Source: Thermostichus sp. DRC_bins_24 (GTDB lineage Bacteria; Cyanobacteriota; Cyanobacteriia; Thermostichales; Thermostichaceae). From it: 17,894 nt of DNA. Where the stretch lies: the NCBI GenBank assembly GCA_039794845.1, contig JAUQVK010000102.1:1-17894 (forward strand). The letters are read 5' to 3'. The position numbers were made by a program, and so were the translations under genes. How positions within the stretch are numbered: the stretch's first letter is position 1; each line of letters opens with the position of its first letter. The notes under the pieces are model-generated. The model was not told the DNA's origin, did not search any database, and saw only the letters and a program-made list of their open reading frames with translations. This document shows, piece by piece, positions 2,905 to 17,894 of this stretch.

Positions 2905-3402
2905 CTACTGAAAAAGGATCCCGTGCTCGATCTGAATATCCAGAATCGGATCCTGAATTACGCCGGCCGTAAAAATCTGTCGGGAGTCAAGGGAGGTGTA
3001 AATGGCCACCGCTTCCAAAGTGGGATCCACCAGCCAACAAGAACGGATCCCCAGGGCAAAGTAAATCTGGAACTTTTCCAGGATTTCATCGGATCCCTGG
3101 CGGGGAGAGAGAATTTCCACGGCCAGCAAGGGAACTTCCCGCATTCGCAAAACATCCCGGGGTCGGCTTAACCCCCGTTTTGGAAACAGGCACAAATCCG
3201 GCTTCACCTCATCCCGATTTTTCAACCCCAACGCGTCCCAATCGAGATGACTCAGATCTAGACTCAACTCCGCGCAGGCAGTGTATTGCTCATTGTCCAA
3301 CAGTTTGCCCAGCCGCACTTGCAAATAGCTGTGATTAAAGGATCCCATCTCCGCATCGGTAACCTGTGCCACATCAGGACTATTTGCCGTCAACTCAGCC
3401 AT
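2905..3402 (-). CDS. Uma2-family (DUF820) putative restriction endonuclease-like protein
   Basis: Motifs H-x2-LQ, VKPDLCLF, PLLAVEILSP and K-x2-IY-x2-LGIRSCWLVDP are typical of cyanobacterial Uma2 PD-(D/E)xK proteins. ATG at 3402 gives 165 aa. Confidence 0.9.
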   Translation of the reverse strand: MAELTANSPDVAQVTDAEMGSFNHSYLQVRLGKLLDNEQYTACAELSLDLSHLDWDALGLKNRDEVKPDLCLFPKRGLSRPRDVLRMREVPLLAVEILSPRQGSDEILEKFQIYFALGIRSCWLVDPTLEAVAIYTSLDSRQIFTAGVIQDPILDIQIEHGILFQ

Positions 3403-3449
3403 CGTATAACCCCAGCCAGTCAATCTCGCTTGCTTAAGCTAGCACCGCC

Positions 3450-9286: not shown

Positions 9287-11005
<1,719 letters not shown>

Positions 11006-14052: not shown

Positions 14053-15717
14053 TTAAACTCGCCCAAAACTCACCCCCAAGCCCAGGATCCCGGCCAACCC
14101 CAGGTAGTAGAGCAGCGGAGCCAACAGCCGCCGCATCAGTAGCCCCTCCCGCCCCAACAGACCCACCGTTGCCGCCGCCGCCACAATGTTCGACACACAA
14201 ATCACATTGCCTGCGGAAGCCCCCACACTCTGAAGGGCGATAATCCAGGCCGTCGGGGCACCGATCTCCTGGGCTACCCCAAATTGGAAGAGAGAAAACA
14301 TCATGTTGCTGACGGTGACGCTGCCCGCCACAAAAGCGCCAATCATTCCCACCACTGGCGCAAAGAGGGGCCACGTTTGACCGGCCAAGGCCGACATCCC
14401 CTGGGCCAACGTTAGGGGCATACTCGCCAGTCCTGCCCCATTCACCTCGGAATTGATGAACACCCGCGCCATCAGTACCGCCGCCCCCAGGGCCAGGGTG
14501 GTTTTCCCCAACAACGGAATGGCCTCTGCTAGGGCACCTTTGAGCTCAGCGGGCTTCATCTCGTGCAAAAAGTAGGTGATCAGCACCACCCCCAAAAACA
14601 GGGTGGCGGGCAGATAAAGGGGTTGGGTGGAAACCGTCAGATCGGTGCCAAACAGGTTTGGCCAACTGAGGCGCACCCGTTGCAACCATCCCCGCAGCGG
14701 CAAGGCTTGCAGCCGAGAGACCACCAGCAATAGCCCCAACAGCAGATAGGGCAGCCACGCCTTCACCACCGTCATGGCAGCCGGGGCCGTGCGCAATTGG
14801 GGCATCAGGGATCCCGTCCATTCCGCGGGCCATTCTCGGGCAAAATCCCAGCTGGTTTTGGGGAGCAGCCATCCCCGCCGCAGGATCCCCACCACCAGAC
14901 CCAACCCCACCAACCCCCCGATCAAAGAAGGAAACTCCGGCCCCAGAAACACGGCGGTGAGGGCATAGGGCAGAGTGAAAGCAACTCCAGCAAAAAGGGC
15001 AAACTTCCACATCGCCAAGCCCTCCTTCCAGGAGGACTGTTCCCCAAAAAAAAGCGTCAGGGTCAACACCAGAATCAGAGGGATGCCACTGCCAATCAGG
15101 GCGTGCAGGATCCCCGCTTGAGCCGCCACCTGGAGCAAAAAGCCCGTAAAAGAGAGATCCTGAGCAGCCAAAGCCACCTCAACCGTCTCGGATCCCCCCA
15201 GCCCCGTCGCTACCCCAAACAGGATCGGGGTGCCCACCGCCCCAAACGTGGAAGGAGTGCTCTGGATGATCAGGGCTGCCATCACCGCCGCCATTGCCGG
15301 GAAGCCAACGGCCACCAACAAGGGCACACAAATCACCGCCGGAGTGCCAAAGCCCGAGGCCCCCTCGATAAAACTGCCAAACAGCCAAGCGATCAAGATC
15401 ACCTGTACCCGACGATCCGCCGAGAGGCCGAGCAGGTTTTGCCGAATCACGCTAATCGCCCCCGAGACTCGCAGCACATTCAGAAGCAAAATCGCCCCAA
15501 ACACGATGTAGAGGATCTCCATCGCAATCACGGATCCCTGCACCAGAGAGGCCGCCACTTGCCCAAACGGCACCTGCCAAATGAGCAACGCCACTACTAA
15601 AGTCACTCCCAACGCTGCCGGCATCGCTTCACTGGCAGGGCGACGACCCACCACCAGCAACAAAAACACCGTAAAAATCGGCAGCAGTGCCACCAGAGAA
15701 TAGACCACCAAAGCCAT
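14053..15717 (-). CDS. lctP: L-lactate/glycolate permease (LctP family)
   Basis: Very hydrophobic 554-aa protein with LctP motifs [67 protein letters not shown] and [12 protein letters not shown]. Confidence 0.92.
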
Positions 15718-15809
15718 TGGAATAGGGGAGTGTGCTTGCGGTTAACAGCGAGAAGATGTCAGTCTAAAGAATCGAAAGGATCCTACTTAACCGTACTCTG
15801 CCAGGGCTC

Positions 15810-16223
15810 ATGAATTTTTTGGGTATTGGACTGCCGGAAATGTTGGTCATCTTTACGGTGGCTCTACTGGTCTTTGGGCCGCGTAAGCTGCCCGAGATCG
15901 GTCGTACCTTGGCCAAAACCCTGCGCAGCTTACAGGACGCATCCAAGGAGTTCGAGACACAGCTCAACAAAGAGGCCCGTGAGCTGGAAAAAGCCACCCG
16001 CGCTGCAACAGCTGCTGCCGCTGCTCCCAAGGCTTCTACCGCAGCCACCAAGGCTCAGCCCAAAACCCAATCGGAGGAGGCCCCGGCGGAAACGCTTCCA
16101 GCCCCCTTGGCAGAGGCAGAGCCGGCTCCCCTGAGTTCGGACTCATCTGCTTCTGATGCAGAACCGGCGGTCGCTGCCGTCCCCGAAGATGTTGCTCCCC
16201 CTCAAGCGGCAGACGCTGCTTGA
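15810..16223 (+). CDS. tatA: Twin-arginine translocase TatA/TatB (TatA/E family) subunit
   Basis: GIGLPEMLVIFTVALLVFGPRKLPEIGRTLAKTLRSLQDASKEFE = TM helix, FGP hinge and amphipathic helix, followed by a long Ala/Pro/acidic tail. TatA versus TatB/Hcf106 cannot be decided by eye. Confidence 0.9.
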   Translation: MNFLGIGLPEMLVIFTVALLVFGPRKLPEIGRTLAKTLRSLQDASKEFETQLNKEARELEKATRAATAAAAAPKASTAATKAQPKTQSEEAPAETLPAPLAEAEPAPLSSDSSASDAEPAVAAVPEDVAPPQAADAA

Positions 16224-16232
16224 CCCACTCCC

Positions 16233-16493
16233 ATGGCCCGCTTCAATCCGCTTTGCTTTGGCATGGAAATTACCCGCATGTTCGAGCAGGGGCAGTCCTA
16301 CTTTGCCCCTTCAAAGGTGGAAACTTGGTTGCGACAGCACGGTCAAAACCCCTCTGATTACGAGATCTCCTTTTCTTCAGAATTGCCCCCCGCCGGCTCC
16401 TCCGCAGTCATGTGGATTTGCGTCGATCTGAAGCGTGTGGATGGCCAGCCGGTGGATCCCTGGTTGTTGGAGGAGCTCAACCGCGTGGACTGA
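16233..16493 (+). CDS. Small hypothetical protein (86 aa), apparently a conserved cyanobacterial family
   Basis: ATG 9 nt after the tat stop codon; host-like codon usage. MARFNP...RMFEQGQS...LKRVDGQPVDPWL resembles cyanobacterial hypothetical proteins as I recall them (not verified). Confidence 0.8.
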   Translation: MARFNPLCFGMEITRMFEQGQSYFAPSKVETWLRQHGQNPSDYEISFSSELPPAGSSAVMWICVDLKRVDGQPVDPWLLEELNRVD

Positions 16494-16608
16494 GAGCTGG
16501 CGTGTACAGAATTGCTCCGGCAAGTTCCCACTTTCTGCCTCCTACTACACTCTCCAAGCAAGAATGGAGTCATCCCAGCCCAACAAAAGGACTGCCAGGA
16601 TCCAGCTC

Positions 16609-17472
16609 ATGCCCTATGACAACCTCTGCAAAGCCCTGGTGGAAGCCAATCCTCTTCCCTTTGTGCAGTGGTTGGTAGGACAAACAACAGAACCCATCCA
16701 AATCCTGAAAACCGAATTGTCCCTCGAACCGGTGCGCGCCGACTTCGTCAGCTTTCTGCAACTCGGGCCTCAAGTTTTGCACTTGGAATTTCAAACGGAT
16801 CCCGACCCGGAGATGCCGTTGCGCATGTTGGACTACTTCGTGCGGCTGCGGCGGCAGTATCGCTGCCCGGTGCTCCAGATCGTGCTGTTTTTGCGCCAGA
16901 GTGGTTCAACGCTGGTGCAACTGGACCACTTTGAAGCAGAGACCACCCGGCATGACTATCGGGTGGTGCGGCTGTGGGAGGAACCGGCTGAGGAGCTTTT
17001 GAGGGATCCGAGTTTGTGGCCTTTGGCAGTGTTGGCCAAGGCGGAGCAGCCTGAGGAGCTGTTGCGGCAAGTGGCGACAGGGATCCAGAACATCTCCAAC
17101 GCCCAGGAGCGGGCCCACTTGGCCACTTACACCTATCTGCTGGGTGGATTACGCTTTAACAAAGAGCTGATGCGGCAGCTGTTGCGGGAGGATGTGATGC
17201 GGGAGTCGGTGACCTATCAGGCATTGGTGGCCGAAAGTGAGCAACGAGGGCTCCTCCGAGGGATCCAAGAGGGTCTCACTCAAGGAATCCAACAGGGGGA
17301 GGCAGAACTGACTTTGCACTTGTTAAGGCGCAAAGTGGGCTCCCTCCCCGAGGCACTGGAAACTCAGATTCGGTCGTTGCCGGTGGAACGTCTGGAAGAG
17401 TTGGGCCTAGCCTTGTTGGAATTCCAGACCTTGGCCGACCTCACCTCCTGGCTGGAGGGAGTCACCCCTTAA
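16609..17472 (+). CDS. Rpn-family (recombination-promoting nuclease/putative transposase) protein with C-terminal DUF4351 domain
   Basis: YDNLCK, KTELSLEPVRAD...LHLEFQTDPDPEMPLRMLDY (D...ExQ variant of the PD-(D/E)xK site), YRVVRLWE, PLAVL, MRESVTYQ, xxxG tetrad repeats, and C-terminal LLRRKVG.LP...IRSL..E.LEELG.ALL.F....DL..WL. Start set at ATG 16609 (AGGA upstream); 287 aa. Confidence 0.9.
   Translation: MPYDNLCKALVEANPLPFVQWLVGQTTEPIQILKTELSLEPVRADFVSFLQLGPQVLHLEFQTDPDPEMPLRMLDYFVRLRRQYRCPVLQIVLFLRQSGSTLVQLDHFEAETTRHDYRVVRLWEEPAEELLRDPSLWPLAVLAKAEQPEELLRQVATGIQNISNAQERAHLATYTYLLGGLRFNKELMRQLLREDVMRESVTYQALVAESEQRGLLRGIQEGLTQGIQQGEAELTLHLLRRKVGSLPEALETQIRSLPVERLEELGLALLEFQTLADLTSWLEGVTP
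17187..17472 (+). other. Internal in-frame ribosome-binding site and start for a possible separately translated 91-aa C-terminal protein (ATG 17197)
   Basis: cgGGAGGatgtgATG: GGAGG at 17187-17191, 5-nt spacer, ATG at 17197 in frame with 16609 (offset 588 = 196 codons). Confidence 0.55.
17239..17298 (+). repeat. Five degenerate 12-nt (4-codon) tandem units encoding EQRG-LLRG-IQEG-LTQG-IQQG
   Basis: gagcaacgaggg ctcctccgaggg atccaagagggt ctcactcaagga atccaacagggg. Confidence 0.7.
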
Positions 17473-17795
17473 ATACTTCTTCTTCTTCAAACTAAGCCTT
17501 GATGTAGCACATCGCCAGAGGCAAATCTAAAGATTGACTCAGTGTGTTGCAGAGCACGTGCAATACATTGAAGTTGGGACTAGGATTGACCCGGGTGAAA
17601 GAGTTCAGATTGTCTCTTGGCCCCGCAGGGTGATGAATGGCCGAGATGGCTGGCTAGGTTGACCCGTCGGGTTTCCTAAATCCTGTGCAGGGTAGATAGC
17701 TCCCTGAGGCGGTGGGGGGAGCGGTTAAATTTCCTGAGTGCTTCTGACTTGCACGTATTGAACAGCTACAACAGAGGCCCATCAAGCTTTTCAAG

Positions 17796-17894
17796 GTGCT
17801 ACGGATGTTGCTGCTTTCTTCGGTGTTGATGTTGCTCTGTAATTGCAGTGGTGGGGGAGGTTCGGCCAGTTTGCCGGGAATCGTCCAGCCCACG
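17796..17894 (+). CDS. Possible 5' end of a lipoprotein/secreted protein running off the window
   Basis: Frame open from 17748 to the window end. From GTG 17796 (or ATG 17805) it reads MLRMLLLSSVLMLLCNC-SGGGGSASLPGIVQPT: basic n-region, hydrophobic h-region, Cys, then a Gly/Ser linker. Not in the supplied ORF track; the lipobox is non-canonical. Confidence 0.45.
   Translation, partial: MLRMLLLSSVLMLLCNCSGGGGSASLPGIVQPT

Follow-up and report, generated by a model that had tools for sequence, protein, structure and literature searches.

The stretch of DNA analysed here (the window) comprises positions 1 to 17,894 of contig JAUQVK010000102.1 from the cyanobacterium Thermostichus sp. DRC_bins_24, and our subject is a gene at positions 16609-17472 whose predicted product joins an Rpn-like nuclease region to a C-terminal DUF4351 domain. 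In Escherichia coli, all rpn genes make a small protein, RpnS, from an internal start, and RpnS binds and blocks the toxic full-length nuclease, RpnL (PMC10400941, Zhong et al. 2023; PMC10400984, Koonin commentary). The preliminary description of the window had proposed the same gene-within-a-gene arrangement for the cyanobacterial gene. We followed up this proposal with comparisons of homologous genes and proteins and with structural models of both predicted products, referred to below as L (full-length) and S (nested).

A predicted DUF4351-tailed nuclease gene with a candidate internal start site

The encoded 287-residue protein is laid out as an N-terminal PD-(D/E)XK nuclease core, a helical linker, a helix of four-residue repeats and a DUF4351 tail. 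Its features, all on the plus strand, are the following.

16609-17472, plus strand: full-length RpnL-like gene, ATG 16609 to TAA 17470-17472, 287 amino acids by translation
16741-16743 (D45), 16786-16788 (E60) and 16792-16794 (Q62), plus strand: putative catalytic residues, from family conservation and the fold model
17186-17192, plus strand: internal Shine-Dalgarno (SD) sequence GGGAGGA, with the core GGAGG at 17187-17191, encoded by R193-E194-D195
17197-17472, plus strand: nested RpnS-like open reading frame (ORF), internal ATG 17197-17199 (M197), 91 amino acids, MRESVTYQ...WLEGVTP, sharing the stop of the full-length gene
17248-17307, plus strand: five four-residue repeats, GLLR GIQE GLTQ GIQQ GEAE, amino acids 214-233, within the long helix
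17281-17454, plus strand: DUF4351 (PF14261), amino acids 225-282, matched by Pfam at E 1.1e-19 with the 287-residue protein as query and at 1.5e-20 with the 91-residue product

The main start at ATG 16609 is supported because the consensus start of the family reads MxYDNxCK. Between GGAGG and the in-frame ATG at 17197 lies a spacer of 5 nt (ATGTG), and all of these elements, together with the coordinates and the 91-residue product, were verified on the sequence as the preliminary description had given them. The 3′ end of the host 16S rRNA (GGATCACCTCCTTT) was located with the Rfam model RF00177 after a 3′-end pattern search of the genome had given none. Its duplex energy with the internal site is −10.3 kcal/mol, compared with −4.1 kcal/mol for the AGGA at the main start, which bears out the earlier remark that the internal site is the stronger of the two. 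The internal start was also said to sit at a domain boundary, and this holds in the structural model described below, where a long helix (residues 201-243) starts just past M197 and DUF4351 occupies residues 225-282.

A lone GGAGGN5ATG within the window is unremarkable for a GC-rich genome. The pattern occurs four times, compared with an expectation of 0.97, a count reached by 4 of 200 shuffles, and the remaining three matches are out of frame or on the wrong strand. The significance of the internal site beyond chance comes from its conservation in homologues and not from the window sequence alone. A tandem repeat finder missed the 12-nt repeats of this copy, its one result being a 12-nt near-duplicate at 17165-17187 that is unrelated to them; the four-residue repeats were recognised at the protein level and by comparison of copies.

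The internal start signal is conserved at the nucleotide level

A family search at E ≤ 1e-5 recovered 624 proteins, of which almost all are cyanobacterial, under the source names ‘Rpn family recombination-promoting nuclease/putative transposase’, ‘DUF4351 domain-containing protein’ and ‘predicted transposase/invertase’. DNA was compared for the best 80 loci of 597 confirmed relatives from other genomes. The resulting set of 87 gene copies, mostly cyanobacterial, consists of the window gene, two same-genome paralogues (47% identical to it) and 84 copies from the 80 loci; L006 and L007, overlapping loci of one partial same-genome copy, were excluded from all 87-copy statistics. Residue conservation was read from an alignment of 118 proteins, and a strong SD site was defined by a duplex energy of E ≤ −9.3. 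The 87 sequences are related, so that counts are not independent, and 39 clusters at 75% nucleotide identity were used as a check.

Every copy has a start codon at the position aligned to M197 (87/87; 84 ATG and 3 GTG), and the corresponding column of the protein alignment contains 117 Met, one Val and neither Leu nor Ile. Of the 87 copies, 64 contain an exact GGAGG, and in 60 of the 64 it is spaced exactly 5 nt from the start. Strong sites account for 73.6% at M197 versus 3.1% when all 24,044 in-frame codon positions of these genes are considered, making M197 the strongest SD position within the gene (mean energy −9.47 versus −2.39). The main starts have a mean of −2.74 and are strong in only 5 of 83 cases. 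M73, a methionine that is also conserved and served as a control, has a mean energy of +0.84 and strong sites in none of 81 copies.

Codon choice upstream of M197 departs from that in the rest of the same genes. Within the five upstream codons, Arg is encoded by CGG in 53 of 79 instances (67%) versus 307 of 1720 (18%) elsewhere, and Glu by GAG in 76 of 105 (72%) versus 658 of 2319 (28%). A per-column test for departure from family codon usage ranks E194 second and R193 third of 268 columns. When the six upstream codons were resampled synonymously, the null mean was −4.92 versus the observed −9.47, with p ≤ 0.05 in 46 of the 87 genes; among the 39 clusters, 17 have p ≤ 0.05 and the strong site is kept in 25.

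The motif is also found where the encoded residues differ. GGAGG is retained in 25 of 35 distinct five-residue contexts, which include REDx, REGx, QEGx, KEEx, TEEI, GEEI, RRDM, RREE, LGGLA and LEEID, and it is encoded in several registers, some of them shifted (AGG AGG GAA, CAG GAG GGA, AAG GAG GAG, ACG GAG GAA and CTG GGA GGT). Both same-genome paralogues keep it, as LEEID-ATG and LGGLA-GTG. Whether the SD sequence is conserved beyond amino-acid constraint was a check that the preliminary description had put forward, and the outcome is clearly positive by codon bias, by synonymous resampling and by the variety of amino-acid contexts. These comparisons show selection on the nucleotides of the internal start signal.

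One 47%-identical paralogue (L002, on contig C68) has an in-frame TAA in its N-terminal region (...FARRGSVAEQ*WLLG, around locus position 1560-1590) and an 8-residue insertion. This paralogue has probably become a pseudogene, although the internal SD and ATG are retained in it.

The N-terminal region has a predicted PD-(D/E)XK fold

The AlphaFold2 model of the full-length protein (pLDDT 88.7) contains a 43-residue helix, 201-243, which begins just after M197 and holds the repeats. Modelled alone, the 91-residue protein (pLDDT 89.9) forms a long helix, residues 2-47, and three short helices. In a wide structure search, residues 1-124 align with NucS (2vld; Z 8.6, rmsd 3.1, 99 aligned residues) and, at Z 5-7, with Can2, Card1, SdaI, PaqCI and McrC, which include restriction enzymes; all of these Z values are middling for the tool used. 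Among the 118 sequences D45 and E60 never vary and conservation of Q62 is at least 90%, and the model places the three residues at strands 46-52 and 55-62. The model and this conservation indicate that the N-terminus has a PD-(D/E)XK nuclease fold with conserved D...ExQ residues, in agreement with the nuclease site named in the preliminary description.

Foldseek returned nothing at E ≤ 0.001 for the full-length model. Profile alignment of the family with E. coli RpnA by hhalign paired the ExQ..RMxxY core only, LEFQT..RMLDY being set against IEHQST..RMMRY; the match is weak (E 0.054) and leaves M244 of RpnA and M197 unplaced.

Repeat number varies between copies and S also occurs as a separate gene

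The first four-residue G-x-x-x repeat begins 17 residues after M197. Across the 87 homologues, the distance from this Met to G244 takes the values 27, 31, 35...71 and is 3 mod 4 in 76 of 87; the count is alignment-based over all 87, two regular expressions having anchored only 58 and 44. Same-genome copies differ in repeat number by −2, +1 and +3 units in L005, L004 and L006, respectively. As aligned, the repeat region varies in length in four-residue steps across the family, and the nested small product has a median length of 86 and a range of 67-149 amino acids. At the upper end of the range, the nested product is about 145-149 amino acids long at L017 2095-2529, L018 1647-2093 and L024 1187-1633, and in L017 and L018 at least it holds two DUF4351-like tails in tandem.

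Six of the 80 loci carry, just behind the full-length gene and on its strand, an intact small gene that begins at the Met equivalent to M197. All six have an in-frame stop 3-13 codons upstream of this Met, and at three of the six loci the repeat number of the stand-alone gene differs from that of the nested copy. A seventh locus, L082, holds a 14-codon remnant of such a gene, and three database proteins (P0134, P0138 and P0139) begin with MRESV. The genome of the window carries a stand-alone copy on another contig, L004, whose upstream flank is unrelated and whose tail gives dN/dS values of 0.10-0.18 against other tails, a sign of purifying selection. These sequences indicate that S also stands alone as a gene of its own. 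Two full-length copies stand in tandem at 4 of the 80 loci. Downstream of the full-length gene in the window there is no stand-alone S gene.

A relative in a Thermostichus metagenome-assembled genome (MAG) is seemingly split into a 180-residue nuclease-only protein (...YTYLLGG) and a 107-residue DUF4351 protein (P0031 and P0133, presumably on one contig, as both are listed with a longest contig of 5146 bases). The stop codon in L004 falls at the same point as the end of this 180-residue protein.

Same-genome copies have a mosaic structure

Ahead of the repeats, the same-genome copies L001, L004, L005, L006 and L008 (window 17030-17472) are 96-100% identical, whereas identity falls to 85-88% in the tails that follow, where dS is 0.26-1.09. 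Such a mosaic points to a breakpoint at the repeats, produced by gene conversion or recombination, although it could also stem from mixed strains in the assembly. The genome is in 115 contigs and several C-terminal variants lie at contig ends; these may be strain variants rather than paralogues. About 260 nt past the stop are also common to same-genome copies at 84-91% identity (window 17473-17740; L004 1846-2128; L006; L008), and the duplicated unit therefore exceeds the rpn gene. Next comes the start of a lipoprotein-like gene (VLRMLLL...CNCSGGGG at window 17780-17894; MKW...GCSGGG from L004 2168 onward).

Two further arrangements in the same genome recall the S module. L096 2-406 and 420-608 (C44), together with L095 1808-2170 (C34), belong to a second Rpn-like subfamily with the tail ...RWDMAVLRESPWYEEIKQEGIQIGKQEGIQIGK..., which has its own internal SD-like GAGGTGGGAT ahead of an ATG, four-residue repeats of the type EGIQ/IGKQ, and a 62-residue stand-alone copy that begins 13 nt past the stop of the longer gene. 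The 269-residue ORF at L095 847-1656 (C34), whose body looks Uma2-like by eye from its translation, ends in ...EEQERQQGIQIGKQEGVQQVARNLLATGMDPAQIAAVTGLTLEQIRQLQH; this tail is a repeat-plus-helix resembling the Rpn S modules, and no Met precedes its repeats.

Comparison with E. coli RpnL/RpnS

The pattern of putative catalytic residues is the same as in E. coli RpnA (PDB 7TH0 for RpnA-S), with D63...E82-H-Q84 in RpnA and D45/E60/Q62 here. The internal SD of RpnA, AAGGAG, is encoded by K240-E241 at positions −4/−3 of M244, and in the window gene R193-E194 occupy −4/−3 of M197. E. coli L and S share a first helix with four-residue repeats that start 8-20 residues after the RpnS Met (PMC10400941, PMC10400984); the distance is 17 here, and the first helix is long in both. 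In E. coli the number of repeats varies among strains and sets specificity, and ypaA is an example of the additional stand-alone RpnS genes that occur behind full-length genes (PMC10400941, PMC10400984). The cyanobacterial family is alike in its varying repeat number between copies, its extra downstream S genes and its tandem copies. RpnA-S and the S modelled here are both a long helix with a small helical bundle, although neither sequence searches nor Foldseek linked the tail to 7TH0. According to the excerpts of PMC10400941, some species have separate RpnS genes that carry a DUF4351 (PF14261) annotation, and co-expression of L and S is probably conserved widely.

There are also differences. 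RpnA-S has 49 amino acids, whereas the DUF4351-tailed S described here has 91, and the cyanobacterial branch is known from sequence only. YpaA (RpnE-Ss), the stand-alone second RpnS copy downstream of rpnE, is matched by the small genes at the six loci and by L004; however, the window gene has no stand-alone S behind it and L004 is on another contig. The E. coli Rpn pairs have an internal promoter, whereas a scan of 15700-17894 returned no sigma-70-like sites, a result that neither favours nor disfavours an internal promoter here.

In Thermosynechococcus, rpn genes form expanded, strain-variable tandem arrays alongside expanded Uma2 nucleases, and in the excerpts of that report (PMC9403480) they are treated as recombination-promoting nucleases or putative transposases; neither an internal start nor a small protein is brought up there.

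Other features of the window

The gene at 2905-3423 on the minus strand, which adjoins the psaB/psaA operon, encodes a putative restriction endonuclease of the Uma2 family (PF05685, E 2e-15). The Rfam model 5_ureB_sRNA (RF02514) matches 9441-9733 on the minus strand with 72 bits, antisense inside the gene for the urease alpha subunit. The match probably reflects coding conservation of urease and not an sRNA.

Discussion

We consider it likely that the window gene is a cyanobacterial, DUF4351-tailed version of the RpnL/RpnS design, in which one gene gives rise to a nuclease, L, and to a nested protein, S, that inhibits it. In the mechanism that we propose, the 287-residue L would belong to the wider Rpn family as a PD-(D/E)XK DNA nuclease, with a C-terminus made of a long helix that bears four-residue repeats and then a small helical bundle, DUF4351. 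Translation would also be initiated at the strong internal SD and ATG of M197, giving a 91-residue S identical to the C-terminus of L. By analogy with E. coli RpnL/RpnS, S would pair with the matching helix of L and keep the nuclease inactive, and the number of four-residue repeats would decide which S fits which L. Because the ribosome-binding site of the main start is weak and the internal one strong, S should be made in excess.

The gene-within-a-gene reading in the preliminary description thus finds support in the conserved SD, the varying repeats, the stand-alone S genes and the D...ExQ core. That S is translated from the internal start is our inference, for which the stand-alone genes beginning at the same Met give indirect support. 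The E. coli precedent suggests that L may be toxic, that S may bind and neutralise it, and that the pair may act in phage defence.

Several observations weigh against this interpretation. Among RNA sequencing runs, none was listed as containing 16400-17600, and the single run offered had almost none of its sequence. The relation to characterised Rpn proteins is distant by the profile searches: the NCBIfam Rpn model TIGR01784 covers amino acids 3-240 at E 5.8e-12 with 46 bits, below its cut-off of 52.1 bits; PF04754 has no match at E ≤ 1 in the 287-residue protein, compared with 1.6e-91 for E. coli RpnA; and DUF4351 has no match in the tail of E. coli RpnA. Structure-based and sequence-based routes to the E. 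coli inhibitor gave nothing either, in that Foldseek with the S model found no hit at E ≤ 0.001 and did not recover the RpnA-S structure 7TH0, and phmmer and the family profile, run against the sequences of the Protein Data Bank (PDB), returned chance L20 matches or none, 7TH0 not being among them. PADLOC reported a weak match (E 0.0065) to C3a178, a ‘putative invertase’, over the repeat helix. The neighbours in the window (tatA, lactate permease, secA, ureC and psaAB) are housekeeping genes and form no defence island. With regard to the start signal itself, the sequences compared are related, and clustering weakens the signal without abolishing it; 23 of the 87 copies are without an exact GGAGG, some having just AGGA or nothing (L011, L054, L057); and R193 and E194 are also conserved as residues, in 110 and 106 of the 118 proteins, respectively. 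Because these two residues are conserved as amino acids, part of the motif could serve the protein.

S might also be made from the internal start and, instead of being an antitoxin, be needed in the nuclease complex as a subunit or act on it as a regulator; alternatively, the system might have a housekeeping role in recombination and no part in phage defence. All of the comparative support for the internal start fits this explanation equally well. It has a precedent in Cas10d/Cas11d, cited in PMC10400941 as a complementary gene-within-gene pair, in which activity depends on the internally initiated product. The gene also stands among housekeeping genes, and housekeeping roles for Rpn proteins are allowed in the excerpted text of the same paper. 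Against it are the hypervariable repeats, the tandem copies at 4 of the 80 loci and the extra S genes with altered repeat numbers, because the E. coli work tied this pattern to the inhibition of L by a matching S. We regard a subunit or housekeeping role without defence as unlikely.

Still less probable, in our judgement, is that only the full-length protein is made, GGAGG being an SD-like pause site or a by-product of the conserved Arg-Glu pair and the Met being structural. Conservation of R193, E194 and M197 as residues agrees with this, as do the chance-level frequency of a single GGAGGN5ATG in the window and the 23 copies that have no exact motif. The codons used at R193 and E194, however, are strongly unlike those of the rest of the same genes, and the motif outlasts both amino-acid changes and shifts of register. 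The sole alternative at the Met is a Val encoded by GTG, which is also a start codon. The 5-nt spacing in 60 of 64 copies, the independent genes that start at this Met and the lack of a site at M73 are likewise at odds with a purely structural role.

That the gene is the transposase of a mobile element, as the source annotations ‘putative transposase’ and ‘predicted transposase/invertase’ and the several near-identical copies that break the assembly at contig ends might suggest, is highly improbable, since the excerpts of PMC10400941 report that terminal inverted repeats or target duplications were not found at rpn genes and that no autonomous PD-(D/E)XK transposase is known, and since the same-genome copies have the gene and the segment behind it in common and differ in their upstream flanks (no dedicated search for terminal repeats was made here).

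Beyond the RpnL/RpnS reading of the single gene, a broader one can be offered only tentatively, and we hold it to be doubtful at present: that the DUF4351-tailed Rpn genes form a large, unrecognised and fast-diversifying family of self-inhibited nucleases in cyanobacteria, in which recombination at the 12-nt repeats may give rise to new L/S specificities and S may be a portable inhibitor cassette. It draws on the hundreds of copies, often several per genome, and on the contrast between the pre-repeat regions (96-100% identical) and the tails (85-88%, with dS up to ~1). The portable-cassette element draws on the occurrence of S as a nested, a stand-alone and a tandem module (L017, L018, L024), in the second Rpn-like subfamily and in the fusion to the Uma2-like body.

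The RpnL/RpnS principle and the link to DUF4351 are already in print, and the advance made here is one of scope, not of kind. A literature search on DUF4351, on Rpn in cyanobacteria and on RpnS/RpnL found no report of an internal start in cyanobacterial Rpn genes, and the string ‘cyanobacteri’ is absent from the main text and two supplement files of PMC10400941. What is new is the cyanobacterial scope, together with direct evidence, from the compared genes, of selection on the internal ribosome-binding site.

For the family, these results amount to sequence-based evidence that the antitoxin-inside-toxin design of E. coli has been kept in a distant branch of cyanobacterial genes that is very large and has another tail domain. 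The labels ‘putative transposase’ and ‘DUF4351 hypothetical’ on hundreds of cyanobacterial genes would be corrected accordingly, and the 91-residue product, missed by gene callers, is now flagged. The variants in repeat number and the stand-alone copies would provide a natural series for studying how repeat number sets the specificity between toxin and antitoxin.

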